NCBI GenBank assembly: GCA_028281325.1
Contig: JANQKC010000031.1
Location: 25,223-89,222 of the forward strand
DNA: 64,000 nt
Direction of reading: 5' to 3'
From: Alphaproteobacteria bacterium
GTDB lineage: Bacteria; Pseudomonadota; Alphaproteobacteria; UBA8366
A program made the translations under genes and the position numbers. Of this stretch, positions 7,622 through 31,073 are shown piece by piece. The notes beneath the pieces were generated by a model, which ran no database searches, was not told the origin of the DNA, and saw only the letters and a list, made by a program, of their open reading frames with translations. Position 1 is the stretch's first letter. Every line of letters starts with the position of its first letter.

Positions 7622-7935
7622 GCCAGGGACTGTTGCCCCCTGGCGGGATCGTTCGATCTTATATGACTCATTATGAAAGCGCTGGCGCTCTAGTTAATTG
7701 TCGCATCGGAGTTACGCCGAAAGGCGCAGAATGATCGTTTCGAATGACGAATATTGATATCTTTCAATTTTGAGTCCCTATCGTCGGTACAATCGCAAAA
7801 ATCCGTATGAGAGCCAACGGGTATTGTCCGGCCCTATTGCAAGGGCCGTCGCGGATTCGATCCCGAATGAGGCATGGAAACCCTGCGTCCGGATGCCGTG
7901 GCCGACGCCGTGGGTATTACGGTCTGCCGAAATTT

Positions 7936-10580: not shown

Positions 10581-10592
10581 ATTGAGGTAGCT

Positions 10593-11788: not shown

Positions 11789-11993
11789 GTGACGGCGGCC
11801 AGGGTCACAAAGAGTCATACGTTCGTTCTTGCATGCCGAGTGTGTTCGCTGCCGTTCACGATGGCGAGACGATCCGGCGGAGCCATCTCGGCCTTTCACC
11901 TACATCTGCGCGCCCCAAAAGAAACCGCCCCGCGCGACGGCGCAGGGCGGGTTCATGAGGCGATCCGGGGGCCATGCGATAGGAAGCTGTCCC

Positions 11994-15912: not shown

Positions 15913-17259
15913 ATGTCAGTCTCTCGGCTCTATCTGATTGCGGCGGGGATGCTCCTGATCGGCTATGCCGTGTTCAACAAGGGCTTTGCCTATGTCGGCG
16001 TGGCGCCGATCTTCATCAGCGAAGTTTTCCTGGCGTTCAGCTTTTTCCTTATCCTGGCCGGGAGCTACAGCAGCCGCGTTTTCGGGTCGCCGTTGGTCTG
16101 GATCATCATCCTCTTCATTTCGTGGGGGGCGATACGGACGTTTCCGTACATCCAGGAATACGGCATGAACGCTCTGCGGGATGCGGTGGTTTGGGGCTAC
16201 GCCTTCTATGCCATTTTCATCGCGGCGGCGCTCCTGCAGGGGCGGTTGGTCGGTCAGGTGCCGAGATGGTTTTCGACCTGGTTCCCGTGGTTCCTCGTTA
16301 TCGCGCCCATCCTCTATATGATGGGGCAGTTGATTGGGGACCGGCTTCCGAAATGGCCGGGAACCGAAACGTCGTTCATCCACATGAAGCCTGGCGACAT
16401 GGCGGTTCATCTTGCCGGGGTCGCGGGCTTTCTCGGGCTTGGGCTGCATCGGCGGTTTCTCCGGCCGGGCGAGCGGATCTCGCAGGTGAAAGAGTTCAGC
16501 CTTTGGATGATCTGGGGCATCGGGGTAATCGCGGCCGGATCGCGGAACCGCGGCGGGATGCTCTCGGTTTTTCTGGCCTGCAGCATCGTCTTGTTGTTCA
16601 AGCCGATGGGCCGCTTGAACCGCGTCATTCTGCCGGCGTTGATCGTCGTCTTCATTGGATTGGCATTCGATATCAGGATTCCCGTCGGCGGGGACCGATA
16701 TTTCTCGGTCCAGCAGATTCTCGACAACATCGAGAGCGTCGTCTCGAAATCGGATAAGACGCAGCTTACCGGCACCGCGTCATGGCGTCTTGAATGGTGG
16801 TCGAAGATTTACCAGGAAACGGTGCATGGCGAATATTTCTGGGACGGGCGCGGATACGGCGTCGACCTATCCAAGGTGCACAACTTCGCCGATTCGACCA
16901 GAAACCGAAGTCCGCATAACGGCCATTTGACGATTTTGTCGCGTTCGGGCATGCCAGGGCTGGTGCTCTGGGTGGTCTTCCTCGGTCTTGTCGGTATCTT
17001 GCTGCTGCAAGGGTATTTCCGAATGCGATCGTTGGGTCAGTATGACTTGGCGGATATCAACGTATGGTGCTTGGTGTATATGTCGGCCTTCATGGTGAAC
17101 TCGTCCTTCGACGTCTACCTGGAAGGCCCGCAAGGCGGGATTTGGTTCTGGGCGTTGATGGGCTTCGTCATCGCGTTGACCGAAGAGCAGCGGTTGCTGT
17201 ATGCGCAGTCGATGGCGTCGCTGCGATCCGAACCCCGTACGTCGCCCGGCCGCTTGTAG
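15913..17259 (+). CDS. O-antigen ligase/polymerase family membrane protein (Wzy_C domain; likely the Wzy polymerase of the locus)
   Basis: 448 aa and polytopic. It has a periplasmic loop and the conserved SPHNGHLTILSRSGMPGLVLWVVF segment typical of the O-antigen ligase/Wzy_C family. Confidence 0.75.
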   Translation: MSVSRLYLIAAGMLLIGYAVFNKGFAYVGVAPIFISEVFLAFSFFLILAGSYSSRVFGSPLVWIIILFISWGAIRTFPYIQEYGMNALRDAVVWGYAFYAIFIAAALLQGRLVGQVPRWFSTWFPWFLVIAPILYMMGQLIGDRLPKWPGTETSFIHMKPGDMAVHLAGVAGFLGLGLHRRFLRPGERISQVKEFSLWMIWGIGVIAAGSRNRGGMLSVFLACSIVLLFKPMGRLNRVILPALIVVFIGLAFDIRIPVGGDRYFSVQQILDNIESVVSKSDKTQLTGTASWRLEWWSKIYQETVHGEYFWDGRGYGVDLSKVHNFADSTRNRSPHNGHLTILSRSGMPGLVLWVVFLGLVGILLLQGYFRMRSLGQYDLADINVWCLVYMSAFMVNSSFDVYLEGPQGGIWFWALMGFVIALTEEQRLLYAQSMASLRSEPRTSPGRL

Positions 17260-17465: not shown

Positions 17466-18308
17466 CTATTTCCGCGGCGTCATATGCGCCCACAAATGCC
17501 AGCCCATCAGCCCGGCGCCCGGCAGGGAATTCACCGATAACGGCGGCGCGTGCATGTGTTCCTTGTGTACGCGTTTCATTTCGAACAACGGGAAATCCGC
17601 TTCGATTTCCTTCGCCGTATAGACCTTGCTGTACGGGTTGAGCGGGCCGTCGGTGTTGCGATGGATGAAATTCTTCATCTTGATGTATTCGAGCAGTCCG
17701 GTCTCTTTGGCGAGTTCGTAATGCTCGTCGTAGATCTTGCCGAGGCTGATGCCGGTCGCATACAGGAATATCAGGCCGAGCCGCCGCAGCACGCTGATCG
17801 ACAGCAGGTAGTTCAGCGAGACCTTCGCATACATCATGATGACGAGTTCGCCGTCCGGCTTCAGGATGCGGGCGATTTCCTTCTGCGCCTGATGGATGTT
17901 CGGGACATGGTGCAGCACCCCATGCGAGAACACGACATCGAAGGAATTGTCTTCGTACGGGGCGTCGAGGATGCTGCCGCATTTCAGTTCGTCATAATCC
18001 AATTCGCGAATCTGCATGCGCGTTTGCAGTCGGGAGATGGATTCGGGGGTGAGATCCAGGCCGCTCCAGCGTCCGCCACGGCGGATGATCTGTTCGCTGT
18101 CGGCGCCTTCGCCCAATCCGATCTCGAGGACGCGCTTGTCCTTGAAATCGACCTCGTCCAGACACCGCAGAATATGGCTCTCGGTCCGGTACCGGAACGC
18201 ATCGTATTTATTGAAGAAATCTTCGTAGTCATCCTTGAGGCCGCCGACTTGGTGGTCGCCGCAAGGATGCGTGTTCCAAAAATCTCTAATTACCGTTTCG
18301 TTCATCAT
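17466..18308 (-). CDS. class I SAM-dependent methyltransferase
   Basis: 280 aa with motif I VLEIGLGEGADSEQIIRRGGRWSGLDL, plus FDVVFSHGVLHHVPN and LKPDGELVIM. Confidence 0.85.
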   Translation of the reverse strand: MMNETVIRDFWNTHPCGDHQVGGLKDDYEDFFNKYDAFRYRTESHILRCLDEVDFKDKRVLEIGLGEGADSEQIIRRGGRWSGLDLTPESISRLQTRMQIRELDYDELKCGSILDAPYEDNSFDVVFSHGVLHHVPNIHQAQKEIARILKPDGELVIMMYAKVSLNYLLSISVLRRLGLIFLYATGISLGKIYDEHYELAKETGLLEYIKMKNFIHRNTDGPLNPYSKVYTAKEIEADFPLFEMKRVHKEHMHAPPLSVNSLPGAGLMGWHLWAHMTPRK

Positions 18309-18770
18309 GGGTCACCGACAACATCGCGTTGTTTTTGCAACGTAAAAACTAAGAGCCGCCCTTTATTCGAATAGGATCATGCGTTGCAAAGTGGCAAGTG
18401 CCTATAGTCCGATCGCCGTACTCACATAGAGTTAACGCCCACCGGCCTTTGAGGGGTGTTTTCCGCTCCGATTCGACGTGGGGATACAGTTTGGAAAACG
18501 GTGCCGAACTGCCAATGCGCGAACGCTCCAACTTTCATGTTTCAGTCCGACTCTCGCGGACATTTCGAGTTACTTGGCCCCCGACGTGAAGCATATGTTG
18601 GGTGCCAAGTGCGAAAATGCATCCCGGTGTCGTCCGAGACTTTCGAACGCCCTCTCGGACGACTCACGGCAGGTTGAGTCGTGCGTTTGGCATGCGTACC
18701 CCGGTAAGATAGTTAAGCATGTCATTGGAAACAATGCGATTTGTCGATTCAAATTAGCTCATAGATCGAC

Positions 18771-18897
18771 ATGATATTATTAAATGTTATTATAATTTAA
18801 TTTATATAAATTTACATATATTACAAATTAAATAAATTTATATTTCTATTATATAAAGTTTTATTTTATTTTATTTCAGGTGATTTCAAAATTGTAA
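18771..18897. promoter_or_regulatory. extreme AT-rich island in a divergent promoter region
   Basis: About 125 bp made almost entirely of A/T, in a GC-rich genome. It contains the perfect 14-bp palindrome AATTTATATAAATT (18799-18812) and a (TTTTA)3 run at about 18859-18876. It lies about 150 bp upstream of the beta-helix gene start (19051). Confidence 0.6.
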
Positions 18898-19050
18898 CGC
18901 CGTTACTTCAGCTTCCTCACTTTACTACGAATGCTCTTCCCAAATACCCCCAAAGGGGTGTGCTGTTTGCTCCGAATTGACCGAAAATCACTCTGGATCG
19001 CGCTGCCGACATGAATTCGTCGGCGGCGCATCTGCATAGAGTCCCACAGT

Positions 19051-20583
19051 ATGGCGATGGCCCCGGTCGAGGATAGGATGACGAAACTGGTCAAAAACAT
19101 GAGTACCCCAGCCAAATGGTTTTCGATCGCGGCAATCGTGATGATCGCCGGCGCCACGGGCTATGCCGTGCGGCACCATGGCGCGGCCGCTTTCTCGGAG
19201 CGCGTTCCGCTCGATAAGCAGGTTGTCGTCAGCCCTGGCGACAACGTTGCGAAAATCGTCAAAGAGCATCCGAGCGGCACGATGTTCGTATTCGAACCGG
19301 GGCTATACCGCGGCAACGTCATCGTACCGAAGGACAACCAGCAGTTTTTTGGCACGGGCGAAGTCATTCTCAGCGGGGCCGCCATCCTGGATAAATGGCA
19401 GCGCGAGGGCGATCGTTGGGTGGCGACGGGCATTCCCAAGCCGCTGCGCCCGCATGGCGACTGCCGGGAAGGGTATGAGTTATGCAAATACAGGGAAGAC
19501 CTGTTTTTTAACGATCGGTTGTTTCACCGGGTCGCATCCCTGGACAAGCTGGTCGCCGGCACCTGGCATTACGTGGACAACAAGGCCTACATCGTGGATG
19601 ACCCGCGGGCCGCGAAGGTCGAGATGAGCCTGTTGCCGGTCGCTTTCACCGGCGGCGCGAAAGACGTGCGGCTGGAAAACCTGATCGTCGAGAAATACGC
19701 GACCCAAGCCCAGTCGGGCGCGATCGACGGCCGGGGCAGCGAACGTTGGGTCGTGTCGAACGTCAGTGCGCGCTGGAACCATGGCCAGGGCTTGTTCATC
19801 GGCAAGGAAATGCGCGTATCCGGCGGCTCGTACAACAATAATGGCCAGATGGGCATGTCAGGCAGCGGCGACAACGCCGTCATCGAAGGGGTCGAGATCG
19901 CCTACAACAACTACGCCAATTTCGCCTATGGATGGGAAGCCGGCGGCTTCAAGTTCGACCGCTCTCGGGGGATTGTGGTGCGCAATTCGTGCATTCACAA
20001 CAACAACGGCGTGGGGATGTGGAACGACATCGACAACATCGACACGGTCTTTGAGGGCAACCGGGTGTTCGGAAACGCCCGGGTCGGTATCGCCAACGAA
20101 ATTTCCTACGCGATGGTGATCCGAAACAACATCGTTGCCAGGAACGCCACGGATCGGGACGGTTGGCTGTGGGGCTCGCAAATCCTGGTGTTGAACAGCC
20201 AGGACACCGAAGTGTACGGCAACGTCGTCGAGGTCGCGGCCGGTTACGGCAACGGGATTACCATCATCCACCAGGATCGCGGCGATGGGGAGTATGGCGA
20301 ATACCTGACCCAGAACAACTATATCCACAACAACCGCATCATCCATCTCGGGGATCGCGGCCGGAACGGCATGGTCGCCGACTTCCAGCAAGAATGGTTC
20401 AAGACGCAATCCAACAACCGGTTTGACCGGAACACCTATGTCGTTCCGAAACCGAACCGGTCCAGATTCGCCGGCAAGGATGGATTTCGGAGTTGGGAGG
20501 CCTTTCTGGAAAACGGCATGGAGCCGAATGGCCAGCGTATCATCAAGCAATCGGAGCCGATGAAGCTGTCCTGCCGCAGCTGA
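19051..20583 (+). CDS. membrane-anchored right-handed parallel beta-helix repeat protein (pectate-lyase fold; polysaccharide lyase/epimerase/hydrolase-like)
   Basis: 510 aa with an N-terminal anchor KWFSIAAIVMIAGATGYAV. Repeated beta-helix coils are visible: NNNGQMGMSGSGDNAVIEG, IHNNNGVGMWNDIDNIDTVFEGNRVFGNARVGIANEISYAMVIRNNIVARN, EVYGNVVEVAAGYGNGITI. Confidence 0.75.
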   Translation: MAMAPVEDRMTKLVKNMSTPAKWFSIAAIVMIAGATGYAVRHHGAAAFSERVPLDKQVVVSPGDNVAKIVKEHPSGTMFVFEPGLYRGNVIVPKDNQQFFGTGEVILSGAAILDKWQREGDRWVATGIPKPLRPHGDCREGYELCKYREDLFFNDRLFHRVASLDKLVAGTWHYVDNKAYIVDDPRAAKVEMSLLPVAFTGGAKDVRLENLIVEKYATQAQSGAIDGRGSERWVVSNVSARWNHGQGLFIGKEMRVSGGSYNNNGQMGMSGSGDNAVIEGVEIAYNNYANFAYGWEAGGFKFDRSRGIVVRNSCIHNNNGVGMWNDIDNIDTVFEGNRVFGNARVGIANEISYAMVIRNNIVARNATDRDGWLWGSQILVLNSQDTEVYGNVVEVAAGYGNGITIIHQDRGDGEYGEYLTQNNYIHNNRIIHLGDRGRNGMVADFQQEWFKTQSNNRFDRNTYVVPKPNRSRFAGKDGFRSWEAFLENGMEPNGQRIIKQSEPMKLSCRS

Positions 20584-20950
20584 TTGGGACTGGTCGAACC
20601 CCCGCCGGCCGAGAGCGGGCGGGGCTGTGGATTTCAAATGCTCCGGCGCGGCGTCGCAAATCGACATAAGGTCGCGTCGTTTTTTCACGCGGAATACGCC
20701 TCTGGCGGGCTGCCGAAAACGTCATTTGTATCCTTCGGGACGGGCCTATCGGCCCGCCTCAAGATGAGGAAAACAAGCATGACTCTCATGGCGAGGAGGC
20801 GCGACAGCGCCGTCTCGAACCATGGAGCCCTTAAAAACCATGGTTTTTCAACAACCTGCTAGAGGGATGCTCCACGCAACGATGTCGATTGCCGGTTTCC
20901 TGCCGCGGTACTCCGGACCGGTGCCGCGCGGCAGGCCGGGCCGCTGTCCC

Positions 20951-21751
20951 CTAGGATGGCGTCGTCGAGGAGGACGGCTTCGCCTTGTACTGCAGCCCGC
21001 GCTTGAAATAGCGCAGCCATATCGCGCAAAGCAGCGACGCCTGGAAAGCGAAGATCAGCATGCAGGCGACCGGCGAGATCAGGAAAACCAGCATCGTAAC
21101 CACGACGATCTGATGATCGATCACGCCTTTGAGGATCTCGCTCGCCAAACTGGGATCGCTCTTGCTGTCCTCATAGGTTTCCGGCAGCAGATGCAGGAAA
21201 AACTGCCAGACGGTGAACCGCGCCAGATAGAAGAAGATGAATGCCAGACCGCCGAATAGCCAGACTTGCGCCAGGGACGTTTCTCCCGCCGCCATATAGT
21301 ACCGATAGATGAAAATGAAAAACGCGCTGTATTGCAGTTGAATGCCGACCAGGTCCATCGCGCGGTCCAGAAAGGCGCCGTAGGGCGATGTGGTTTTCGT
21401 GGCGCGCGCCAACTGTCCGTCCGCGCAGTCTAGGATGTATGAGATCTGAGACAGGACGAAAATCGTCAGTATCGGCGCGACGGCGCTTTCCGTTCCCATC
21501 AGCGCGGCGGCGAGAAGGGCCAGTAGACTGAATGCGCCAGAGGCGGCCGAAATCTGGTTGGCCGTCATGTTCAGCCGATAGCCCGCATAGGCAATGAATA
21601 TCGAAACATTGTGCGTCGTCAGTCGATCCAACAGCAATTGACCGTCCGCGCTACGGCCGCGCCAGAACTCGGCCAGGGGAATTCTGTCGGCTTTCGGGCC
21701 GGCGGCGACCGCGACCTTTGGATCGTTAATTGCTTGTTTCATATCGGTCAT
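20951..21751 (-). CDS. CDP-alcohol phosphatidyltransferase family protein
   Basis: 266 aa and polytopic. It has an exact family signature D-x2-D-G-x2-A-R-x8-G-x3-D-x3-D in ILDCADGQLARATKTTSPYGAFLDRAMDLVG. Confidence 0.85.
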   Translation of the reverse strand: MTDMKQAINDPKVAVAAGPKADRIPLAEFWRGRSADGQLLLDRLTTHNVSIFIAYAGYRLNMTANQISAASGAFSLLALLAAALMGTESAVAPILTIFVLSQISYILDCADGQLARATKTTSPYGAFLDRAMDLVGIQLQYSAFFIFIYRYYMAAGETSLAQVWLFGGLAFIFFYLARFTVWQFFLHLLPETYEDSKSDPSLASEILKGVIDHQIVVVTMLVFLISPVACMLIFAFQASLLCAIWLRYFKRGLQYKAKPSSSTTPS

Positions 21752-22224
21752 TTTTCTCGCCGACCGGCGTAAATATTTGAATTATATCGGTAAAAGTCGT
21801 CTGCCTTCGCGCGCGCGTTGTTTCTCTCTTTGTGGACCGCCGGCTTGTTGGCGACTGCGCGTGGAATCCGATTCACGCCGATGTCGATCGTCAGGGTGGG
21901 GCGCTGATCGGCAGTAGCATGCTGCGCGACCCGAAACGGGGGCCGTCCGGTCTGATTGATCGAGCGCGCAACGGCGCGGCGGTCGGCAGGCAAGTGAATG
22001 CGCAGGGTCACGTCGCAGGCTTTGTTACACAAATTTTACGATCCGAGTATGACTTGCCCTCTCCAAAAATAAATAACCCTTTCGAGTGTTCGGCTAACTA
22101 CCTTGGCGAAGATGCCGGTCTCCGTTGTTTCCCTGTCCTTGATCTGGATTCTCGGTCAAGATGACCCAGAACATGTATATAATTCATTAAGTTATATGTT
22201 TTTCTGCAGCGCGGTATACTTGAT

Positions 22225-23175
22225 GTGACGAAGCCTTTCAAACCCGGTGTTAGGCCGTCGAGACGGCTTCGCCTCGTCTCGCTTGGCGACGCTTTTAGGG
22301 TGCTCCGATTGGCGGTGCTTGCCGCAGCCTCATGGATTGTTCCTCGCAGGTTCTGGTCCGGATTGTCCGGCGTGTTGGCCGAGGTCGATGTTCGTCTGCG
22401 CGCCAAGGAGATGACCGGTCGAGCCGATGAAATCGCACGGGTCGCCGGATCGACTATTGAGTTGGATACGGACAGGGTTGTGCGCGCGAGCATGGCGGCC
22501 CATTGCGAGAGCCAACTGCAGCATTTCCGGTGCTACCGGCCCGGTGGGTGGCTGCCGAAAACCCGCGTTTCCGGCCGTGATCAAATCGATCAGGCGTTGG
22601 CCGAAGGGCGGGGCGTGATCCTTTGGGTCAGCAATTTCACGTTCAGCGATTTGGTGTCGAAGATCGCGCTCGCCGAAGCGAGCGTCGACGTGACGCATCT
22701 CAGCCGTCCGACGCATGGTTTTTCGATCACGCGTTTCGGCGTGCGCTTTCTCAATCCGCTGCAATCGAAGATCGAGGATCGTTTTCTCAAGGAGCGCGTG
22801 CTGATTTTGGATCATGCAGCGGTCCGGGCGCTGGTGACGTTGCGCGACCGCTTGCAGAAAAACGGCGTCGTGTCGATCACCGTCGGCGACATGGCGCATC
22901 GGGTGGTGCAAGCGCCCTTTTTGGGGGGAAGGATCAACTTGTCGACCGGACCCGCGGAATTGGCCCGTATGACGGGGGCGGCCCTTTTTCCGGTGTTTAC
23001 GGTGCGGGATGGTGACGATGCGTATTGCACGCATATCGGCCGCCCGCTCGGCGCGGACGGCGTCGACGGGCCGGCGTATTTCCAGGCCGTGGCGGCCGGC
23101 TACGCGGACCAACTTTTGCCTTTCGTGCGCAACCATCCGGAATGTTGGAAGAGTTGGGGAATCGTCAGCGTCTAG
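22225..23175 (+). CDS. LpxL/HtrB-like (lipid A biosynthesis acyltransferase family) protein, atypical active-site motif
   Basis: 316 aa. By-eye alignment to the Lip_A_acyltrans template gives GRGVILWVSNFTFSDLV versus G-K-G-V-I-L-x-x-x-H-x-G-N-W-E-L. It also gives LQKNGVVSITVGDMAHRVVQAPFLGGRINLSTGPAELARMTGAALFPVF versus the conserved substrate-binding block. His appears to be replaced by Asn. Confidence 0.55.
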   Translation: MTKPFKPGVRPSRRLRLVSLGDAFRVLRLAVLAAASWIVPRRFWSGLSGVLAEVDVRLRAKEMTGRADEIARVAGSTIELDTDRVVRASMAAHCESQLQHFRCYRPGGWLPKTRVSGRDQIDQALAEGRGVILWVSNFTFSDLVSKIALAEASVDVTHLSRPTHGFSITRFGVRFLNPLQSKIEDRFLKERVLILDHAAVRALVTLRDRLQKNGVVSITVGDMAHRVVQAPFLGGRINLSTGPAELARMTGAALFPVFTVRDGDDAYCTHIGRPLGADGVDGPAYFQAVAAGYADQLLPFVRNHPECWKSWGIVSV

Positions 23176-23227: not shown

Positions 23228-24766
23228 TCAGCGTCGGCGGCGCAGCATGCCGCGGACGGCGCCGATGGCGTTCAGGCAAAGCCGCCGCCGCAGGATAATC
23301 GCAGCCAGGCCGAAGCAGGCCGTGTAGATCGTTCCATTCATGACGGCGCTGAAAAAGGCATGGTCGGGCGCGGGCAGCGAGGCGGCGGCTCCCCATGCGG
23401 CGGCCAGACCGATGATCCCGATGAGGTAAGGCCAGTAGACCGCTGCTAGAATTCGATGGAGGGGTACGGAAACGTAGCGACCGCCGATCACCAAGTAGAC
23501 GATGGCGCTTAGGATGGAGTAGGCGCCGATCGCATAGGTGATCTCCATAAGGCCGCCGACCGTTGCGCCGATCGCCGCCGTCGCCATGATGCCGATGGCG
23601 TCCCAACAAGACAGGGCGGTTGTCACCCGCCAAAGACCGCGCGATTCGAGCATGGCCCGGACGACGATGGTCACCGCCGGGCGGGTCGCGGTGATGGCCA
23701 TGACTTCGGCCACCGGCACGGCGTCGTCCCATTTGCCGCTCCAGACGAAACCGATCGTCGGTTCCGCGACCGCGGCGATCGCGAAGCCCAGGAAGAACAT
23801 AACGAAGGTGCTCATCTCCATCGATTGGATGAAGGCGCGGTCGCGTTGTTCCGGCAGTTTCTGCAGGGTCGCGAGGGATGGCGTAAACACCGCGTACAGG
23901 CTTTGGGAAACGATCGTGAAGACGCCTAGCGTCAGCTGAAACCCAAAGAAATACAGACCGATGGTCGTTTTGTCCTCAAGCGCGCCGATCACCATATAGG
24001 CGCCATTGCCGACCAGCGACATGGCGACCAACCCTGGAATGATCCAGGCGCATTGGTGCATTGTAGGCCAGAAAATGCGGAGCTTGGGCAGTGTCGGCCG
24101 CCAGTCGATCCGCGTCCGTCGAAGCAGGAACATCCATTCGAAAACGCCGACAAGAACGAAAGGCCATGCCAGACTGTAGGGACCGAAGCCGAATACGGCG
24201 AGTAAGATGATGGAGATGTTTCGGATCAGCGCCGAGTATCCGTTCAGGACGGATAGCTCGCCGAAGCGTAAGCCGACCGCCAACTCCGCACGCAACAGTC
24301 GCGGGATCGTCTCGGCCGGCACGCTGACGCCGATGATGATCAGCAGCCAGATGACGTCATCGCTTTCGTAGACGCGGCCAATCGCCGGTGCGATGGCCAG
24401 GACGATGGCGAGAAGCCCGATATTGATGATGAAGGACAATCCGCAAAGCGGCCCATAGAGATGGCGAAATGCCTTTCCCCGATAGATCAGAATCTTGTGC
24501 AGGCCGCCGTTGGTTACGAAACCGAATATTTCACCCCATGCGACGGCGATCGCGAACAGGGCGAAATCTTCGGCCGACAGCATCAATCCGGTGACGTAAA
24601 GCGTGCCGATCCCGAGCAGCTTGGCGGCGAGATTGGTTGAGAACAGCATCGTCGCGCCGCGGGTCGCGGTTTCGCTGTAGCTGCGCTGCGATGGCTCGGT
24701 CTGTGTCATCGGGTCCGGTCGTCCCAGCCGAAATGGCGCGGTAACCCCACGATCGCGCGACCGCAT
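23228..24766 (-). CDS. MOP-superfamily polysaccharide flippase (Wzx-like / Polysacc_synt), copy 2
   Basis: 512 aa with about 12-14 hydrophobic segments. The N-terminus (TNLAAKLLGIGTLYVTGLMLSAEDFALFAIAVAW) is typical of the lipopolysaccharide/polysaccharide biosynthesis protein family. Confidence 0.75.
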   Translation of the reverse strand: MRSRDRGVTAPFRLGRPDPMTQTEPSQRSYSETATRGATMLFSTNLAAKLLGIGTLYVTGLMLSAEDFALFAIAVAWGEIFGFVTNGGLHKILIYRGKAFRHLYGPLCGLSFIINIGLLAIVLAIAPAIGRVYESDDVIWLLIIIGVSVPAETIPRLLRAELAVGLRFGELSVLNGYSALIRNISIILLAVFGFGPYSLAWPFVLVGVFEWMFLLRRTRIDWRPTLPKLRIFWPTMHQCAWIIPGLVAMSLVGNGAYMVIGALEDKTTIGLYFFGFQLTLGVFTIVSQSLYAVFTPSLATLQKLPEQRDRAFIQSMEMSTFVMFFLGFAIAAVAEPTIGFVWSGKWDDAVPVAEVMAITATRPAVTIVVRAMLESRGLWRVTTALSCWDAIGIMATAAIGATVGGLMEITYAIGAYSILSAIVYLVIGGRYVSVPLHRILAAVYWPYLIGIIGLAAAWGAAASLPAPDHAFFSAVMNGTIYTACFGLAAIILRRRLCLNAIGAVRGMLRRRR

Positions 24767-24954
24767 CCCGTGGCCGTCTCCGATCTATGGCGCCCAGTCG
24801 TCGCAAACCTAGGGCACATCGGCATCCTGCGCATCATATATCCCGCCGTCCGATTCGGGGTTGAGCGGCGATCGGCGTTTAATGGGGATCGCTTGCGCGA
24901 ATTTTGTTTGGGACGAACCATGTATCCGGTAGAAGTATGCAGCTTGTGCTGCTG

Positions 24955-25065
24955 TGATTTTTTTCAATAATTGAATTTATAAGAAATAAAAATCAATATT
25001 TACTTAGTTAGTATTGATTAATCAAAAATACATAAGCAAAAATTAATTGATGTGTTGAATGGATG
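24955..25065. promoter_or_regulatory. AT-rich island with nested palindromes in a divergent promoter region
   Basis: About 110 bp, nearly all A/T. It contains an 8-bp inverted repeat AATCAATA (24991-24998) / TATTGATT (25012-25019) and the perfect 12-bp palindrome TTGATTAATCAA (25014-25025). It sits between flippase copy 2 (minus strand) and the carrier-protein cassette (plus strand). Confidence 0.5.
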
Positions 25066-25310
25066 CCAAAATTTACAAGTAAAGCGGGTTTGCGCCACGA
25101 AAATTTGGGATTAGGTCCGATTAAACCCATCGACGCCGCCATAAAGTTTGATAGGTTTTTTCCATTGATCGCCGTGTCCAACGGTTCATCGGGTTTGAAT
25201 CCGGTTGGATGGAATGGGTTTTACGACCGTGGGTGCTGGCTGATCATTTTGTAAGAGTTACCCTGTCGGGCGTCTTGGCGCCCGGCGGCGTTCAGCCGGA
25301 ATGAATTGAA

Positions 25311-26357
25311 ATGCCCCTTGCCTATACCTCACTCGACCACGGCAACATGCACACGATGGAGAGCATGTTCCTCTCCTATCTCAGGCGGGACTGGCCGCGT
25401 GCATTCATTGACGAATATTTCGGCTGGCAGTTCTTGGACGGGGACGATTGCGAAACCGTGATGGCCTTGGACGAGGACCGTTGCGTGGCCATGATCCATT
25501 CATCGATCCGGCCATACGCGATCGACGGGACGCCGACCCGCGTGCGGGAAACCGATTTTTGGATCAGCGAGCCGGAGTATCGGCCATTCGCGAGCTTTCG
25601 CGTCTTGCAGACGTTGATGGCCAAGCCGGAGCCTATCTGCGCCGTTACGGCGAATGACTATGTGACATCGATTTTCCATCGTCTGAAATGGCAACAACTG
25701 CCCGATATCCAACAGATGGTATTGCCGGTCCGCGCGAGCCTTCTTGTAAAGGCGCTCGCCAACCGGCTCGAGAAAAGCGTGGGGGAGTTGCCGCGGCTTG
25801 CCGCGTTGCCGTTCCGTGTTCCCATACGGCGGCCCAAGCGCATTCCCGCACCATCGTCGTCCGCTTCCGTCCGCGAGATAATGGCGGCCGACGAGATACC
25901 GCATATCGTCCCGCCGGCGGATGAATATGCCGTCGTGCAGTTGGCGACGCCGCAGGACTACGATTGGTTCGCGGCGGCGCCTGCGCCGTTCGGGGATTTC
26001 GTTTGGCTTGCGTTTTCGATCGGCGGCAAGCCCGTCGCCTACACGATCAGCAGGATTTACCCGGAAGGGCCGTGTTTCGGCGCGAAGATCCTTCACGTCC
26101 AATCGGCGGCGAAGGGGCCGGAGATTTATGGCTGGGTCTTAAGCGAGACTTCCGCGCATCTCGCGAAACGCGGGGCAGATTGGATCGACGCGCGGTTTTC
26201 TTGTCCGCTTCTGGTCGAGGCGCTGGACCGGGTCGGCTACATGACCGGCCGGACCGATATCGCCTTCTGGTGGCCGGGAGCGGAAAAAATGCCTAAAGGT
26301 CAGTACCTTATATCCGTCCTCTTCCGGGGCGAAGGACTTGCGCCATACCCCGTCTGA
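25311..26357 (+). CDS. hypothetical protein, possibly a tandem GNAT-fold (FemAB-like) acyl/aminoacyl transferase
   Basis: 348-aa ORF with good coding appearance, the first gene of a co-directional cassette. Its two halves each resemble an acyl-CoA N-acyltransferase fold (e.g. VWLAFSIGGKPVAYTISRIY...AKILHVQSAAKGPEIYGWVLSETSAHLAKRGADWIDARF). The functional call is weak and made by eye only. Confidence 0.45.
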   Translation: MPLAYTSLDHGNMHTMESMFLSYLRRDWPRAFIDEYFGWQFLDGDDCETVMALDEDRCVAMIHSSIRPYAIDGTPTRVRETDFWISEPEYRPFASFRVLQTLMAKPEPICAVTANDYVTSIFHRLKWQQLPDIQQMVLPVRASLLVKALANRLEKSVGELPRLAALPFRVPIRRPKRIPAPSSSASVREIMAADEIPHIVPPADEYAVVQLATPQDYDWFAAAPAPFGDFVWLAFSIGGKPVAYTISRIYPEGPCFGAKILHVQSAAKGPEIYGWVLSETSAHLAKRGADWIDARFSCPLLVEALDRVGYMTGRTDIAFWWPGAEKMPKGQYLISVLFRGEGLAPYPV

Positions 26358-26513
26358 ATGCGCCGGCGACCGGCCGTTGCAGCTTTCGACGTAAACGGTA
26401 TCTGAGTACCATTCAAAATTGTGGTACTACCAAAAGAGGATTTCATAAGCATGGATATCGTGGGCACAATTCCACTGCAAAGTCATGTATTTAGATAAAA
26501 TGATATCTTTGAT

Positions 26514-27548
26514 ATGAGCGCTCTATCTTCAGACCGTCAACATTTCAAGATTTACTCCACGTCACCGCAGTCAAAAGACTTTCCGCGAGAAGACTATGTG
26601 GATCAAACGATAAGGGTGGCGCAATGGAGCGAGGAGTTCGGCTGCGAAGGGATTTTGGTCTACACGGATAACGGCCTCGTCGATCCTTGGCATGTGTCCC
26701 AGCTCATCTTGGAGAATACGAAAACGCTGAGCCCTTTGGTCGCGGTGCAACCGATCTACATGCATCCGTATACCGCCGCGAAGAAGATCGCGACGCTGGC
26801 CTATATGTACGGCCGGCGGATTTGCCTCAACATGCTCGCCGGCGGGTTCAAGAACGATCTTATTGCGCTTGGCGACGATACGCCGCACGACGACCGTTAC
26901 GTTCGAACGACCGAGTACACGCTGATCCTGCGGCGGCTATTGGAGGGCAAGGGGCCCGTCACCTTCAAGGGGAAATACTACACCGTCGAGAATCTGAAGT
27001 TGACGCCGACGCTGCCCGAAGAGTTGTTCCCGGGTATCCTTATCTCCGGATCGTCGGATGCGGGCATGCAGGCCGCGCGGGATATCGAGGCGACGGCGAT
27101 CAAATATCCGAAGGCGCCGTCGGACGAGTCCGCCGACGCCATCGAAGAACCCATGGAGTGCGGTATTCGTGTCGGTATCGTCGCGCGCGACAGCGATGAC
27201 GAGGCGTGGCGTATCGCGCTCGATCGCTTCCCGGAAGACCGCAAGGGGCAGATCACGCATAAACTGGCGATGAACGTCAGCGACTCGAGCTGGCACAAAC
27301 AGCTTTCGGAGATCGAAGGCGAGACGTCGCCAAGCGAGGGGCGCAGCCCGTACTGGCTCGGACCGTTTCAAAACTACCGGACCTTCTGCCCCTATCTCGT
27401 GGGCAGTTACGAGCGGTTGGGCGGTGAACTCGGCAAGTATCATCAACGGGGCTACCGAACCGTCATTTTGGATATCCCGCCGAACCAGGAAGAGTTGGAG
27501 CATACCGACCGCGCCTTTGCGGAAGCGTCCAAGCGGGTAGGGGCCTAG
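26514..27548 (+). CDS. LLM-class (luciferase-like) flavin-dependent oxidoreductase
   Basis: 344 aa with a TIM-barrel LLM pattern: WSEEFGCEGILVYTDNGLVDPWHVSQL, LVAVQPIYMHPYTAAKKIATLAYMYGRRICLNMLAGG, RYVRTTEYTLILRRL. Confidence 0.85.
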   Translation: MSALSSDRQHFKIYSTSPQSKDFPREDYVDQTIRVAQWSEEFGCEGILVYTDNGLVDPWHVSQLILENTKTLSPLVAVQPIYMHPYTAAKKIATLAYMYGRRICLNMLAGGFKNDLIALGDDTPHDDRYVRTTEYTLILRRLLEGKGPVTFKGKYYTVENLKLTPTLPEELFPGILISGSSDAGMQAARDIEATAIKYPKAPSDESADAIEEPMECGIRVGIVARDSDDEAWRIALDRFPEDRKGQITHKLAMNVSDSSWHKQLSEIEGETSPSEGRSPYWLGPFQNYRTFCPYLVGSYERLGGELGKYHQRGYRTVILDIPPNQEELEHTDRAFAEASKRVGA

Positions 27549-27553
27549 CCGCC

Positions 27554-29155
27554 GTGTTGATGCAGGATCTTGTCTCCGGTCAGGTGGAGGCGCGCCCCAA
27601 CGCAACCGCGCTGGTGATGGGGGCTGACAAGATTTCTTATGGCGACTTGGATATCTTAAGCAATCGCGCGGCGAGTATGCTGCGCGAAATGGGCTGCAAG
27701 CCCGGCGACCGCGTCTGCCTGTTGCTGCCCAAGGCGATTCCGACGATTGCCGCCATGCTCGGCGTATTGAAGGCCGGCTGCCTCTATGTCCCGATGGATC
27801 TGGAAAGCCCGACCGAGCGGCTGGCGCGAATCACGAAAGCCTGCGAGCCGGCGGTGATCCTGGTTGCCAACGACTCGATCGAACAGCTTATTGAACTCCG
27901 TGACCTGTCCCCCGAGGCGAAATCGGCGCGGTGCGGTACCCTTGCCGATGATCTTGATGCGCCCGCGGGTTTGGATCTCGCCTTCTCCGGGCCGGATGTC
28001 GCGCAGATGCCGGCTGCGGCGTTCGACAGCCGTCGCGGGGCCGGCGATACGGCCCATATCCTGTTCACCTCCGGATCGACCGGCGATCCGAAGGGCGTCC
28101 AAATCTCACATGGGAATGTCGTGTCCTTCGTGGAATGGGGACGGCGCCATTTCCAGATCGGGACCGACGATCGCACGTCCGGCCAGCCGCCGTTGCATTT
28201 CGATCTCTCGACATTCGACATTTTCGGATCGCTCGCCGCCGGCGCGGAGCTTCACCTCGTGCCGGGGTCTTTGAATCTGTTTCCCAACAAGGTCGCCGAT
28301 TTGATTCGGACGTCACGGCTGACGCAATGGTTCTCGGTGCCGTCCCTGTTGTCCTATATGATGAAGTTCGATGTCGTGAAACAAGGCGATTTCCCGGACC
28401 TCAAACGTCTTATCTGGTGCGGCGAAGTGTTCCCGACGCCGGGGCTGATCTACTGGATGGAGCGGTTGCCGCACGTCACGTTCACGAACCTATACGGTCC
28501 GACCGAGGCGACGATCGCCAGCAGCTATTACACCGTGCCGGCCTGCCCGCCGGAGGCGACGTGGCAGACGCCGATCGGCAAGGCGTGCGACGGCGAGGAA
28601 CTGCTGGTTCTGGATGAGGCGTTGAAGCCGGTGGAAACCGGCGCGGTGGGCGACCTCTACATCGGCGGGGAGGGCCTGAGCCCTGGATACTGGAAGGACA
28701 CGGCGAAGACCGCCGCCGTATTCATCGACGATCCGCGAAGCGACCGCGCCGGCGCCCGGATATACAAGACCGGCGATTTGGCGACCGTTGGGGAGGACGG
28801 TCTCGTCTATTTCCTGGGTCGTGCGGACAGTCAGATCAAGTCGCGCGGGTACCGTATCGAACTCGGCGAGATCGAGACCGCCGCGAACGCAATCGACGCC
28901 GTCAGCGAGGCGGCGATCGTCGCGATCGAGGGCGAAGGATTCGAAGGGGCCATCATCTGCTGCGCTTATGCGAGTATGGAGGCGCAGGACCTCTCGCCCG
29001 CGGACTTGCGGCGGGCGCTGACCGAGAAACTGCCGAAATACATGCTGCCGTCACGCTGGCTCATGCTCGACCCGTTACCAAAAAACGCCAATGGCAAGAT
29101 TGACCGCAAAACCCTAAGGGAGCGCTTTAGCAATGGTTTGGGTCAGGCCGCTTGA
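27554..29155 (+). CDS. stand-alone amino-acid adenylation enzyme (NRPS A-domain / DltA-like)
   Basis: 533 aa with the canonical A-domain cores. A3 is LFTSGSTGDPKG, A4 is LHFDLSTFDIF, A5 is NLYGPTE, A7 is YKTGDL, A8 is GRADSQIKSRGYRIELGEIE and A10 is PKNANGKIDRK. No condensation, thiolation or thioesterase domain is fused. Start may be GTG 27554, TTG 27557 or ATG 27560. Confidence 0.9.
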   Translation: MLMQDLVSGQVEARPNATALVMGADKISYGDLDILSNRAASMLREMGCKPGDRVCLLLPKAIPTIAAMLGVLKAGCLYVPMDLESPTERLARITKACEPAVILVANDSIEQLIELRDLSPEAKSARCGTLADDLDAPAGLDLAFSGPDVAQMPAAAFDSRRGAGDTAHILFTSGSTGDPKGVQISHGNVVSFVEWGRRHFQIGTDDRTSGQPPLHFDLSTFDIFGSLAAGAELHLVPGSLNLFPNKVADLIRTSRLTQWFSVPSLLSYMMKFDVVKQGDFPDLKRLIWCGEVFPTPGLIYWMERLPHVTFTNLYGPTEATIASSYYTVPACPPEATWQTPIGKACDGEELLVLDEALKPVETGAVGDLYIGGEGLSPGYWKDTAKTAAVFIDDPRSDRAGARIYKTGDLATVGEDGLVYFLGRADSQIKSRGYRIELGEIETAANAIDAVSEAAIVAIEGEGFEGAIICCAYASMEAQDLSPADLRRALTEKLPKYMLPSRWLMLDPLPKNANGKIDRKTLRERFSNGLGQAA

Positions 29156-29690
29156 ACCGCATGACCTCGAATTGGCGGCCGAATGGCTGTCGAACGAGCG
29201 GAACTATGCTTGGCTGGATTTCGGCGGCGGCGTGCAGCATCTGTCGCCGCTGGCGTTGGCGGCAATGTCGCAGCGCCCCACCCATGACTTGATGGTCTTT
29301 GGCGTGAAAGGGGAACCGACGCCGATCGGACTGATTGGTGTTAGTAACATTGCGCCAATGTTTGGCTCGGGCACGCTTTGGTATGTATTAGGCGAGAAAA
29401 CGTTCGAAACGAAAGGAATCACCAGCAGGGCCGTCGCACGGGCCCTTGACCGCGCTTTCGGAACGCTCGGTTTAGAAAGCGTGAATGCGTGGGTCGTGGC
29501 GAACAACATCGGATCGATCAGAGTGCTGGAGAAAAACGGATTTCAGCAGATCGGCCGTCAAAGAAAATGTCATCGAATCGGTGCGACACTGGTGGATCGG
29601 ATTCATTTCGATAAATTGGCCGATGAGCAAACGCAAGATCGGTGGGACGATTCTGAAAGACGGCTCGGCGGCGCAAGAAACGAGCATTGA
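29133..29690 (+). CDS. GNAT-family N-acyltransferase (RimJ/RimL-like)
   Basis: 185 aa. It overlaps the adenylation gene by 23 nt. Motifs: VRPLEPHDLELAAEWLSN and the acyl-CoA-binding region ESVNAWVVANNIGSIRVLEKNGFQQIG. Confidence 0.8.
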   Translation: MVWVRPLEPHDLELAAEWLSNERNYAWLDFGGGVQHLSPLALAAMSQRPTHDLMVFGVKGEPTPIGLIGVSNIAPMFGSGTLWYVLGEKTFETKGITSRAVARALDRAFGTLGLESVNAWVVANNIGSIRVLEKNGFQQIGRQRKCHRIGATLVDRIHFDKLADEQTQDRWDDSERRLGGARNEH

Positions 29691-29736
29691 ACTACAAATC
29701 GCGTTAGGGGCACGCGGCGGGAGAGTGAGGAGTAAA

Positions 29737-30021
29737 GTGGAGCAAAACGTAGCATCGGGTGGGTGCAACGAGACGACGGATCGGATTTTGAGCATCCTGA
29801 CGGACCAGTTGAACCTGACAGTTCCGACACCACAGACAGACTTGATCGGCGAGGGCATTCTCGATTCCCTGGCGCTGGTGGATTTGATCATGCATCTCGA
29901 GGGCGAATTCGGTTTCGCGGTCGAACCGGACCAACTCGAGTTGGATAATTTTCAGACAGTCGAACGCATCGGCCAGATGGTCTTGCAGTCGACCGCCGAG
30001 CTGAGGAGCGCCGCGGTCTAG
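29737..30021 (+). CDS. acyl/peptidyl carrier protein (phosphopantetheine attachment site)
   Basis: This is the C-terminal 94 codons of ORF 29485..30021. A GTG at 29737 is preceded by a GAGG Shine-Dalgarno sequence (29727-29730). The 4'-PP attachment motif is LIGEGILDSLALVDLIMHLE. Size and acidic character are typical of ACP, PCP or DltC. Confidence 0.8.
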   Translation: MEQNVASGGCNETTDRILSILTDQLNLTVPTPQTDLIGEGILDSLALVDLIMHLEGEFGFAVEPDQLELDNFQTVERIGQMVLQSTAELRSAAV

Positions 30022-30072
30022 TTAACGGCAGGGCGGCGACGCGCGGACCATCGTTTGCATCGGACAGAAAAC

Positions 30073-30103
30073 AACGCCGCCGGCATCGACCGGCGGCGTT
30101 TTT
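30073..30103. terminator. bidirectional rho-independent terminator
   Basis: 11-bp stem AACGCCGCCGG (30073-30083) / CCGGCGGCGTT (30090-30100), loop CATCGA, then TTT. An A-run lies on the other side. It sits between the carrier-protein stop (30021) and the uxs stop (30126). Confidence 0.7.
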
Positions 30104-30125
30104 CGTTCAGGCCCAGGGATCGAGG

Positions 30126-31073
30126 TTAGGTATTGCGCCGCAGCAGGTCTTCGAAGAATGCGACGGTTTTCACCAACCCTTCGTCGAGGGGAATCTTCGG
30201 CTCCCAGTCGAGATGCTTCTTCGCCGCCGCGATGTTCGGGCAGCGCTGGGTCGGGTCGTCCTGTGGCAGCGGATGATAGCTGATCTCGGACTTCGAGCCG
30301 GTCATCTCGACGACCTTTTCGGCGAGTTGCTTGATCGTGAACTCTCCCGGATTGCCGAGGTTCATCGGGCCCGTGACCTCGCTCGGCGCGTCCATCAGGT
30401 TCAGGAAACCGCGGATGAGATCGTCGACGTAGCAGAAGGAGCGGGTCTGGCTGCCGTCGCCGAAGATGGTGATCGGCTGGTTCTGCAGCGCCTGCATGAT
30501 GAAGTTGGACACGACGCGTCCGTCGTTCGGCAGCATGCGCGGACCGTAGGTGTTGAAGATACGGGCGACGCGGATGTCGACCTTGTGTTGGCGGTGGTAG
30601 TCGAAGAACAGTGTTTCGGCGCAGCGCTTGCCTTCGTCGTAGCAGGCGCGCGGACCGATCGTGTTCACATTGCCGTGGTAGTCTTCGGTCTGCGGATGAA
30701 CGTCCGGGTCGCCGTAGACCTCGCTGGTCGAGGCCTGGAAGATCTTCGCCCGGACCCGCTTCGCCAGGCCCAGCATGTTGATCGCGCCATGCACCGACGT
30801 CTTGGTCGTCTGCACCGGGTCGAACTGGTAGTGGACCGGCGAGGCCGGGCAGGCGAGGTTGTAGATCTCGTTGACCTCGACATAGAGCGGAAAGGTCACG
30901 TCGTGGCGCATGACCTCGAAATACGGGTTGTCCAGGAGATGGGCGATGTTGTCCTTCGTGCCGGTGAAATAGTTATCGACGCAGAGAACGTCGTGGCCGC
31001 GCTCCAACAATTGCTCGCACAGATGCGAACCCAGAAATCCGGCGCCACCGGTTACCAATACGCGCTTACGCAC
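30126..31073 (-). CDS. uxs: UDP-glucuronic acid decarboxylase (UDP-xylose synthase)
   Basis: 315 aa with very strong resemblance to UXS. Motifs: [63 protein letters not shown], and YxxxK in [11 protein letters not shown]. Confidence 0.9.

Follow-up and report, generated by a model that had tools for sequence, protein, structure and literature searches.

A five-gene carrier-protein cassette proposed to decorate a Wzx/Wzy-exported polysaccharide with a modified amino acid in an alphaproteobacterium

A 64,000-nt stretch from the genome of an Alphaproteobacteria bacterium (UBA8366; assembly GCA_028281325.1, contig JANQKC010000031.1, positions 25,223–89,222), here called the window and numbered from its own first nucleotide, carries what its gene content identifies as a large Wzx/Wzy-type polysaccharide locus. 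Embedded in this locus is a cassette of five genes, g1–g5, whose products would act together in the cytoplasm, by way of a carrier protein, to attach a modified small amino acid to a sugar of the exported polysaccharide; we give this reading a probability slightly better than even (about 0.55). The five open reading frames (ORFs) all lie on the plus strand at 25311–30021. They encode a tandem-GNAT protein of an unnamed family (g1, 25311–26357, 348 aa), an SsuD-like LLM flavin-dependent oxidoreductase (g2, 26514–27548, 344 aa), a stand-alone amino-acid adenylation (A) enzyme with a GTG start (g3, 27554–29155, 533 aa), a small GNAT of the RimJ/RimL type (g4, 29133–29690, 185 aa), and a stand-alone peptidyl/acyl carrier protein (g5, 29737–30021, 94 aa).

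In the proposed pathway, g3 would adenylate one small α-amino acid and load it as a thioester onto holo-g5, as its family membership and specificity code indicate. The tethered residue would then be oxygenated by g2, an SsuD-like monooxygenase predicted to depend on reduced flavin mononucleotide (FMNH2), either at Cα, yielding a 2-oxoacyl group, or at the amine, yielding an N-hydroxy group. The candidate for the next step, an N-acetylation, is g4, whose target may be the tethered residue, at its α-amine, or the acceptor sugar, at a second amine; its assignment follows the equivalence of its slot with that of a formyltransferase, which would fill the same step in most relatives. Finally, g1 would move the acyl group from the phosphopantetheine arm to the acceptor, a role suggested by its fold, its domain fusions, and synteny. 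The acceptor would most likely be the free amine of a nucleotide- or undecaprenyl-linked amino sugar, produced by a DegT pathway or by a deacetylase. None of the five proteins has a membrane-spanning segment; thus, unlike the Dlt system, the cassette would not need an MBOAT protein for membrane crossing. A “capped aminoacyl” product of this kind is chemically precedented, because N-acetyl-D-alanyl, N-acetyl-L-alanyl, and N-acetylglycyl groups on Qui3N or Qui4N are known polysaccharide decorations (PMC3210612).

The genes are tightly packed: g1 and g2 are separated by 156 nt and g2 and g3 by 5 nt, g3 overlaps g4 by 23 nt, and 46 nt separate g4 from g5, for which a GTG at 29737, just preceded by GGAG, is the plausible start within a frame open from 29485 to 30021. 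A first-pass annotation, made from the DNA letters, had described the same five co-directional, packed genes with the same 5-nt gap, 23-nt overlap, and 46-nt gap, and every motif it quoted is present in the translations (TSGSTGDPKG, NLYGPTE, YKTGD, GRADSQIKSRGYRIELGEIE, NGKIDRK, HFDLSTFD, and GILDSL). The domains it named for g2–g5 were likewise recovered by hidden Markov model searches of Pfam and NCBIfam: PF00296 in g2, PF00501 and PF13193 in g3, PF13302 in g4, and PF00550 in g5. The gene order is kept in related genomes, so the arrangement is not due to chance.

What does the cassette activate? The enzyme g3 matches PF00501 (261.5 bits) and PF13193 (37.7 bits), and TIGR01733 is the sole model whose cut-off it exceeds (376.8 vs. 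317.4 bits); together with core motifs A3–A10, Asp235, and Lys517, this makes it a member of the amino-acid adenylation enzymes. A ten-position specificity code could be extracted by alignment to LgrA, transferred to the A domains of other cassettes, and cross-checked against DltA. In g3 it reads DLFFICLIAK (D235, L236, F239, F278, I299, C301, L322, I330, A331, and K517), and the pattern DL[F/H/Y]F[L/I/M]CLIAK is kept in 45 of 47 cassette A domains, whose median identity to g3 is 53%; a single substrate therefore appears to be conserved. At the same positions, Bacillus cereus DltA (3DHV) has DLMTLCTVAK. Most cassettes have Leu at position 299 and so share six of the ten residues with DltA; g3, with Ile299, shares five. 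The shared residues include the equivalent of DltA Cys269, which shapes the D-Ala pocket, and at the four positions that differ in every cassette, g3 has hydrophobic residues bulkier than those of DltA. Since Asp235 implies an α-amino group on the substrate, g3 is predicted to use one small α-amino acid of about the size of Ala or Gly, possibly D-Ala. This bears out the earlier view that an amino acid is a more likely substrate than a fatty acid: TIGR01733 is passed, Asp235 and Lys517 are kept, and the pocket is DltA-like.

The carrier protein, g5, scores 38 bits against PF00550 (cut-off 20.8) and has the GILDSL serine motif; it is 39–40% identical to the carrier proteins beside g1 homologs in two related loci, L005 and L012 (loci are numbered with an L throughout). 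The description of the cassette as “Dlt-like” fits the way in which it may work, and the pockets are similar, but it fails as membership: g3 falls short of the DltA equivalogs (314 vs. a cut-off of 476 bits for NF003417; 300 vs. 560 for TIGR01734), and g5 falls short of those for DltC (34 vs. 68 bits for NF003464; 22 vs. 52 for TIGR01688). An NCBIfam match of the carrier proteins to ACP_for_OlsHI was dropped; the OlsH/OlsI pathway relies on a GH3-like enzyme and an alpha/beta hydrolase and is unrelated.

A related locus, L013, reaches what may be the same end by other means. Its g1 homolog is 30% identical and lies with genes for Wzz-like and ParA-like proteins, a sulfotransferase, and a MurJ/MATE-type transporter; in the run of genes at 5347–9047 that leads up to it, an aminoacyl-tRNA synthetase (aaRS)-like amino acid–[acyl-carrier-protein] ligase (NF005479, 151 bits) comes first, and two carrier proteins, of 86 and then 92 aa, flank an AurF-family diiron oxygenase. 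Here the activating enzyme and the oxygenase appear to have been swapped for non-homologous analogs with the logic kept. This ligase family charges Gly or Ala onto carrier proteins, which agrees with the small amino acid proposed for g3. We know of no role for the aaRS-like carrier-protein ligases, and the L013 locus may supply a biological context for them. At another locus, L014 (6619–11945), a CapK-like adenylating enzyme overlaps a g1-like gene among glycosyltransferase and Wzy genes. The opposite strand of L014 encodes a DltB-like MBOAT protein (167 bits to TIGR04091, below the cut-off) and two unannotated proteins.

Fatty-acyl-AMP ligases and the Vibrio cholerae O1 tetronate pathway use carboxylic acids that lack an amino group; could g3 likewise activate a short or hydroxy fatty acid or a similar compound? 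Acyl-CoA-ligase models do match g3, if below their cut-offs (e.g., NF004837 at 247 bits), and the L014 enzyme, an acid–CoA ligase by type, occupies the place of the A domain. This possibility nevertheless has only the slimmest chance, given that TIGR01733 is the only model above its cut-off, that Asp235 and Lys517 are conserved along with the code positions that match DltA (six of ten in most cassettes, five in g3), and that the equivalent enzyme in L013 is a ligase for amino acids. Assignment of g3 to the fatty-acyl-AMP ligases, or of a fatty acid as its substrate, was rejected in view of TIGR01733 membership and Asp235.

If g3 charges g5 with an amino acid, how does the residue leave the carrier? 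The cassette has one protein that would fit this task and that matches no described family: g1 has zero matches in Pfam (E ≤ 0.01) and in NCBIfam. An AlphaFold (AF2) model built from a 13-sequence alignment (predicted local distance difference test score 82.7; predicted template-modeling (TM) score 0.85) contains two β-α-β halves, and the best Foldseek matches in the PDB are N-myristoyltransferases and the Eis-like 2hv2 (E ~1e-12, TM 0.51–0.59). The predicted fold agrees with the earlier “tandem-GNAT-like” call; membership in PF13480 (FemAB/BioF2-like), suggested at the same time, found no support in Pfam. A conserved motif-A-like segment surrounds R91 in the N-terminal half. The close clade is small, with 13 clusters among 5.8 billion proteins and seven loci in 185,579 species genomes, and its members all come from metagenome-assembled genomes (MAGs) of Alphaproteobacteria, including one of a Geminicoccaceae. 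When 1.84 billion representatives are searched with a profile, the family, which has no name, grows to 256 clusters, and these wider relatives match Acetyltransf_9 or Acetyltransf_1 in their N-terminal half.

Two domain fusions in the g1 family are particularly informative about function. In P0077 (2165 aa), a type I polyketide synthase (PKS) with the order KS-AT-DH-KR-ACP continues directly into a g1-like domain, which takes the position usually held by a thioesterase; in P0096 (671 aa), a polysaccharide deacetylase is joined to a g1-like domain. These fusions suggest that the family draws its donor from a phosphopantetheine thioester and that a sugar amine, once released by de-N-acetylation, can be its target. 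Read together, they cast g1 as an off-loading acyltransferase with an amino sugar as the likely acceptor; on the basis of fold, domain fusions, and synteny, transfer from the carrier protein to the glycan is the likely function of g1.

The gene itself varies among closely related loci. Between the window and L003/L011, g1 (10001–11047 there) is 49% identical, g2–g5 are 82–91% identical, and the flanking UXS, GT4, and UGD genes are 97–99% identical; nucleotide homology is lost at ~24846–25887 of the window. Thus, g1 behaves as a swapped allelic gene in an otherwise conserved locus. Divergence confined to one GNAT half, on the acceptor side, was ruled out, because both halves diverge equally. 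Alleles that are ~50% identical within conserved loci may reflect a contribution of g1 to surface-antigen diversification. Copies also occur elsewhere: OZ245815.1 carries two copies, 99.4% identical, of a 1.2-kb segment that contains a g1 homolog and nothing else (9957–11184 of both L007 and L008; L004 is the same locus as L008). Their surroundings are unrelated; those of one copy are a copper-resistance island that encodes a P-type ATPase, YHS domains, and a cupredoxin, and neither copy has a carrier, A, or LLM gene within 10 kb.

The most conserved gene of the cassette is g2. It belongs to the LLM class (PF00296, 111.8 bits vs. a cut-off of 27.9) but not to the SsuD equivalog (TIGR03565, 105.7 vs. 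518.2 bits), even though its closest solved structures are those of SsuD (88.6 bits), FMNH2-dependent enzymes. More than 6500 homologs are found at E ≤ 1e-20, including more than 100 clusters with 62–68% identity, and the JGI name “alkanesulfonate monooxygenase” is the sole label on most of the close ones. An LLM of the g2 type nearly always adjoins the A gene and is often translationally coupled to it; this near-universal pairing with adenylation and carrier genes suggests that g2 acts on the tethered group, and such action would be the most economical reading of its function. LLM domains in assembly lines have been proposed to α-hydroxylate tethered intermediates (PMC8739492). By analogy, g2 could hydroxylate Cα, and on a free α-aminoacyl thioester the product would collapse to a 2-oxoacyl group; alternatively, it could N-oxygenate the residue, as suggested by the AurF-family enzyme of L013, and together with a formyl- or acetyltransferase this could give a hydroxamate-type group. 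Flavin supply appears to be linked to the pathway as well: directly upstream of the LLM gene in L018 (5477–6934), a Flavin_Reduct domain is fused to an NTP_transferase, which would tie nucleotide-sugar synthesis to the provision of reduced flavin for the LLM, and in L025 and L036 the survey labels the stretch just ahead of the LLM as a flavin-reductase match. A search of plasmids with g2 returned LLMs that are only 34–49% identical and that lie in natural-product-like clusters, not in the cassette.

A bolder version of the pathway would have the oxygenase and the N-formyl- or N-acetyltransferase together build an N-hydroxy-N-acyl (hydroxamate-type) or other N-oxygenated group on the tethered amino acid, which g1 would then graft onto the exopolysaccharide. 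We regard this as unlikely; if true, the polysaccharide would bind metals or be redox-active, many soil bacteria would share the pathway that makes it, and the reading would give the aaRS-like amino acid–carrier-protein ligases a biological role.

The fourth protein is a genuine Acetyltransf_3 (RimJ/RimL-like) member (PF13302, 62.1 bits vs. a cut-off of 25.4), with weak matches to PseH, a sugar N-acetyltransferase, and to Acetyltransf_8; its closest solved structure is the RimJ-like 3igr, an acetylase of the α-amine type. It is absent from L012, L016, L017, L018, and L021, and L021 has a formyltransferase in its slot, before the carrier gene and with the same 23-nt overlap with the A gene. A g4-type GNAT fills that slot in one further metagenome cassette, L029, with the order LLM–A–GNAT–carrier protein. 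The formyltransferases of the L012, L016, L018, and L021 cassettes are mutual orthologs (42–55% identity), and because they have diverged about as much as the A domains, the formyltransferase is taken as an old part of the cassette. In g4, the GC content at third codon positions is 0.62, compared with 0.74–0.78 in the other four genes, a difference consistent with later acquisition. The equivalence of the slots leads us to read g4 as a replacement N-capping enzyme, which would add acetyl rather than formyl, and this role is more likely than that of an off-loading transferase.

Must the off-loader then be g1? The first-pass annotation had proposed that two GNATs could transfer the tethered group; of these, g1 is the likely off-loader and g4 is more likely a capper in the formyltransferase slot, so the two are not equivalent. 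In the converse arrangement, g4 would release the residue from the carrier, and g1 would serve some separate purpose, for instance in self-protection or a second acetylation. The position of g4, flanked by the A and carrier genes and translationally coupled to g3, speaks for this arrangement. It is nonetheless very improbable: a g4-type GNAT is found in just one of 24 well-flanked relatives, the usual occupant of its slot is a formyltransferase, and g1-type proteins accompany the carrier gene far more often and are also found fused after an acyl carrier protein (ACP).

The same five genes occupy the same locus in L001/L010, L006, and L003/L011. More distant relatives differ in gene content. 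A Geminicoccaceae MAG (L012) lacks g4 and has LLM–A–carrier protein–g1, beside which lies a formyltransferase gene; L005 places a g1 homolog directly beside a carrier protein, among Wzx, Wzy, GT4, and priming-transferase genes. L017 has LLM–A–carrier protein followed by a 383-aa protein with an Acetyltransf_9 match, and L021 has LLM–A–formyltransferase–carrier protein and a 400-aa protein. The arrangement in L016 is formyltransferase–LLM–A–(uncalled carrier protein)–319-aa protein, with AsnB, ADH/GFO, and glycosyltransferase genes and, nearby, genes for a phosphopantetheinyl transferase (PPTase) and a nonribosomal peptide synthetase (NRPS). L018 is the richest in sugar genes: DegT, a small Bac_transf, the NTP_transferase–Flavin_Reduct fusion, LLM–A–carrier protein–366-aa protein–formyltransferase, a deacetylase, a methyltransferase, and GT2. 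By contrast with these, the LLM gene of L022 has no A or carrier gene and lies among AsnB, GT4, UGD, and carbamoyltransferase genes. The complete genomes that carry L011 and L016 are assemblies of the MAG type.

When metagenomes were scanned with the LLM as anchor, at least 535 contigs proved to carry a close relative; 80 loci were kept and annotated with queries and profiles from the window and from sampled loci, on crude longest-ORF gene calls. The A gene is present in 65 of the 80. Twenty-four loci are well flanked, with at least 2.5 kb upstream and at least 4.5 kb downstream; among these, 23 have the A gene, 21 a carrier protein, and 14 a tandem-GNAT-like gene, a formyltransferase occurs in eight, a g4-type GNAT in one, glycan genes in 14, and a PPTase in three, all lower bounds because only window-derived queries were used. 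The cassette is thus, by gene content, one variant of a widespread core that consists of LLM–A–carrier protein and a GNAT-type protein of 320–400 aa; judged by the names of the metagenome samples, its hosts are mostly from soil. Literature searches (LLM/adenylation/exopolysaccharide, O-antigen ACP, carrier-protein ligases, Bll0957/Atu2573, and others) found no description of the cassette, a paper on the Bordetella wbm locus makes no mention of relevant genes, and no curated NCBIfam equivalog covers g1 or g2. The first-pass annotation had not recognized this exact gene combination as a characterized system, and neither a paper nor a curated family was found, but the combination is not peculiar to this locus.

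Is the polysaccharide context more than incidental? The survey places relatives of the cassette mainly among glycan genes rather than inside NRPS or PKS clusters; a location mainly next to NRPS or PKS genes would have refuted the first-pass reading, and it is not what is seen. A different product can still be envisaged: a small diffusible metabolite, such as a siderophore-like N-acyl or N-oxygenated derivative of an amino acid, which g1 would release onto a small-molecule amine. Several observations lean this way and weigh against decoration of a polysaccharide. First, PPTase and NRPS genes adjoin the cassette in L016, L060, L062, and L064. Second, relatives of the LLM with 46–49% identity occur on plasmids of Tritonibacter mobilis (L019) and Rhizobium sp. 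(pMK-3, L020), together with AMP-binding proteins, a carrier protein, a cytochrome P450, and a PPTase, and in Tritonibacter also an acyl-CoA dehydrogenase; both look like small, uncharacterized natural-product-like clusters. Third, a g1-like domain ends a PKS, and orphan g1 homologs are found outside glycan loci (L004/L008, L007, and L015), the one in L015 with neither glycan nor carrier-protein neighbors. Other points count against individual steps: the GNAT-type proteins after the carrier gene match the g1 profile weakly in L016–L018 (E 1e-7 to 1e-11) and not at all in L021; we know of no polysaccharide decoration that would obviously need an oxygenase acting on a substrate of the size of Ala or Gly; and the nearest solved relatives of the cassette formyltransferase are ArnA (94 bits), which acts on a sugar amine, and Met-tRNA formyltransferase (80 bits), which acts on an aminoacyl amine, so the target of the slot enzyme is ambiguous.

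Yet a diffusible product is unlikely. The cassette sits between wzx and the UXS/GT4/UGD genes, both in the window and in its relatives; glycan genes accompany 14 of the 24 well-flanked loci even with window-derived queries only; the deacetylase fusion and the neighboring NTP-transferase–flavin-reductase, DegT, and phosphoglycosyl transferase genes all point to sugars; and the cassette comes without an exporter or regulator specific for a small molecule. Decoration of a polysaccharide thus remains the reading in which we place most weight.

Pfam and NCBIfam scans of the window recover, before the cassette, a priming Bac_transf gene (3249–4739), Wzy (15913–17259), and Wzx (23228–24766, minus strand), along with genes for GT4 glycosyltransferases, a methyltransferase, and a β-helix protein. 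Two plus-strand genes, an NTP_transferase (9864–10580) and a DegT/EryC1 aminotransferase (10593–11729), are candidate suppliers of a nucleotide-activated amino sugar as acceptor; the DegT match is the aminotransferase that the first reading had placed in the same locus. A polysaccharide deacetylase (14948–15739, plus strand; PF01522, 62.4 bits) is a candidate for freeing a sugar amine that is then acylated anew. DegT, NTP_transferase, and Bac_transf genes are again neighbors of the cassette in L018 and in many metagenome loci, and deacetylase genes adjoin it in L018, L028, L060, L062, L064, L065, and L097. Beyond the cassette lie UXS-like, GT4, and UGD genes, then genes for a heparinase II/III-like protein, an ADH/GFO fusion, an AsnB-like protein, and a STAND NTPase, followed by export genes for a BBP2_2 porin, a Wza-like protein, and a Wzz/BY-kinase.

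Rather than a sugar of the repeat unit, the acceptor might be a lipid or a glycolipid anchor, with g1 acting like N-myristoyltransferase or OlsB. A gene resembling LpxL and the PIM acyltransferases (22225–23175) and one for a CDP-alcohol phosphatidyltransferase (20951–21751) lie just upstream of the cassette, an LPG_synthase_TM protein is encoded near it in L021, and the best fold matches of g1 are transferases of lipid acyl groups. However, lipid-type neighbors are absent from L005, L012, L016, L017, and L018, the small adenylation pocket with Asp235 argues that the donor is not a fatty acid, and the deacetylase fusion points to amino sugars; a lipid acceptor is accordingly quite improbable, and an amino sugar is preferred.

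Among ~45 window ORFs scanned, none has a Pfam match to a condensation domain, a thioesterase, MBOAT, or DltD, in line with the first-pass annotation, which had reported the same four absences; tblastn with a DltB-like MBOAT against the window returned nothing significant. The ORFs scanned also include no formyltransferase, PPTase, flavin reductase, second adenylation gene, or second carrier gene, and the PPTase and the flavin reductase must therefore be encoded elsewhere in the genome.

The cassette has clear boundaries, as noted in the first reading. On its upstream side, wzx (minus strand) and g1 (plus strand) diverge from an intergenic region (24767–25310) whose AT-rich core (~24930–25070) has 24% GC, compared with 59.6% for the window; this core is presumed to be a promoter or regulatory region. 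A scan of the island for the sigma-70 consensus gave no promoter match, so its role is assigned from composition only, and an Rfam scan of 24600–30300 returned zero RNA families. AT-rich islands (16–23% GC) lie at the equivalent position in L001 (~9701), L003 (~9592), and L006 (~9684), with no conservation of sequence. On the downstream side, a strong, bidirectional hairpin that resembles an intrinsic terminator (30073–30100; a stem of 11–12 pairs, nine of them G–C, with T-runs on both strands) separates g5 from the convergent UXS-like gene. A second low-GC stretch (47% GC over 18001–19000) lies between the methyltransferase and β-helix genes; low-GC stretches of this kind may be xenogeneic-silencer binding sites or promoter regions.

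Other features of the locus deserve mention in their own right. Two long ORFs have no Pfam match even at E ≤ 1: one of 426 aa (7936–9216, minus strand) and one of 388 aa (11829–12995, plus strand), the latter directly 3′ of the DegT aminotransferase gene. Between the β-helix and LpxL-like genes, L001, L003, and L006 carry a GT4 gene and an intact gene of the PhyH family (phytanoyl-CoA dioxygenase-like); in the window, the GT4 gene is missing and the PhyH gene mostly missing (20583–21923 vs. 3614–6644 of L001), so the locus is variable on this side too. The STAND/AAA-type NTPase gene (nSTAND1, 40694–42460) is inserted between the AsnB-like gene and the BBP2_2 porin gene. Further on (48495–53014), two genes overlap, one for a 7TM protein whose transglutaminase domain is inactive (PF14402/PF14400) and one for a “sugar-transfer associated” ATP-grasp protein (PF14397), and on the strand opposite to this pair, just past the Wzz/BY-kinase gene, is a PGA_cap family gene; the 48495–53014 group may be a second polymer-modification system.

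Many O-antigens and capsules bear N-acyl-aminoacyl groups on amino sugars (PMC3210612). The cassette offers a concrete candidate route to such decoration, in which NRPS-type activation, a free-standing carrier, and off-loading by a tandem GNAT would be combined. To our knowledge, the enzymes that install these groups are largely unassigned. Because the adenylation code is almost invariant, one biochemical characterization would annotate hundreds of loci, and the high conservation of the LLM oxygenase hints at chemistry that is new to polysaccharide decoration.

How does the cassette compare with systems of known function? One close counterpart in logic is the Dlt system (DltA, DltB, DltC, and DltD) of Gram-positive teichoic acids, in which a stand-alone A enzyme likewise loads a small amino acid onto a dedicated carrier for decoration of a surface polymer. 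Unlike Dlt, the cassette has neither the DltB MBOAT nor DltD; transfer is predicted to occur in the cytoplasm through a tandem GNAT, and an LLM oxygenase and an N-capping enzyme are added. N-acylation of Nod factors offers a second parallel: the deacetylase NodB frees the amine, NodF is an acyl carrier protein whose fatty acid is built with the help of NodE, and NodA is the N-acyltransferase. As proposed for the cassette, a sugar amine is freed or made and then N-acylated in the cytoplasm from a carrier thioester, and the window has a deacetylase gene in its locus, while the g1 family includes a deacetylase fusion. In contrast to the fatty acid of NodE and NodF, however, the donor of the cassette would be an amino acid activated by an A domain, and g1, without any Pfam match, is not a homolog of NodA. 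In V. cholerae O1, rfbKLMNO directs N-acylation of perosamine with tetronate, a hydroxy-acid donor, using an alcohol dehydrogenase and LuxC/LuxE-like proteins. This is also an O-antigen locus with a carrier protein and an AMP-forming ligase for an unusual N-acyl group on an amino sugar; it differs in its set of enzymes and in using a hydroxy acid where the cassette would use an α-amino acid.

The individual enzymes have counterparts elsewhere. N-myristoyltransferases and Eis-like proteins are the best fold matches of g1 and also hold two GNAT halves in one chain, but they are only 7–12% identical to it and use acyl-CoA donors, whereas the contexts and fusions of g1 indicate a carrier thioester. 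Enzymes of the PvfB/PvfC type N-oxygenate a carrier-tethered amino acid; they and the LLM domains of PKS and NRPS resemble g2 in placing an oxygenase on a thioester-tethered substrate, a likeness reinforced by the AurF-family enzyme that takes the place of the LLM in L013. They differ in making small molecules, as opposed to working in a glycan context, and the LLM of the cassette is a free-standing, SsuD-like protein. The cassette thus belongs to none of the Dlt, NodA/NodB/NodF, and V. cholerae O1 tetronate systems, the last being set apart by the known makeup of its enzyme set, and contains in g1 what appears to be an undescribed family of transferases.

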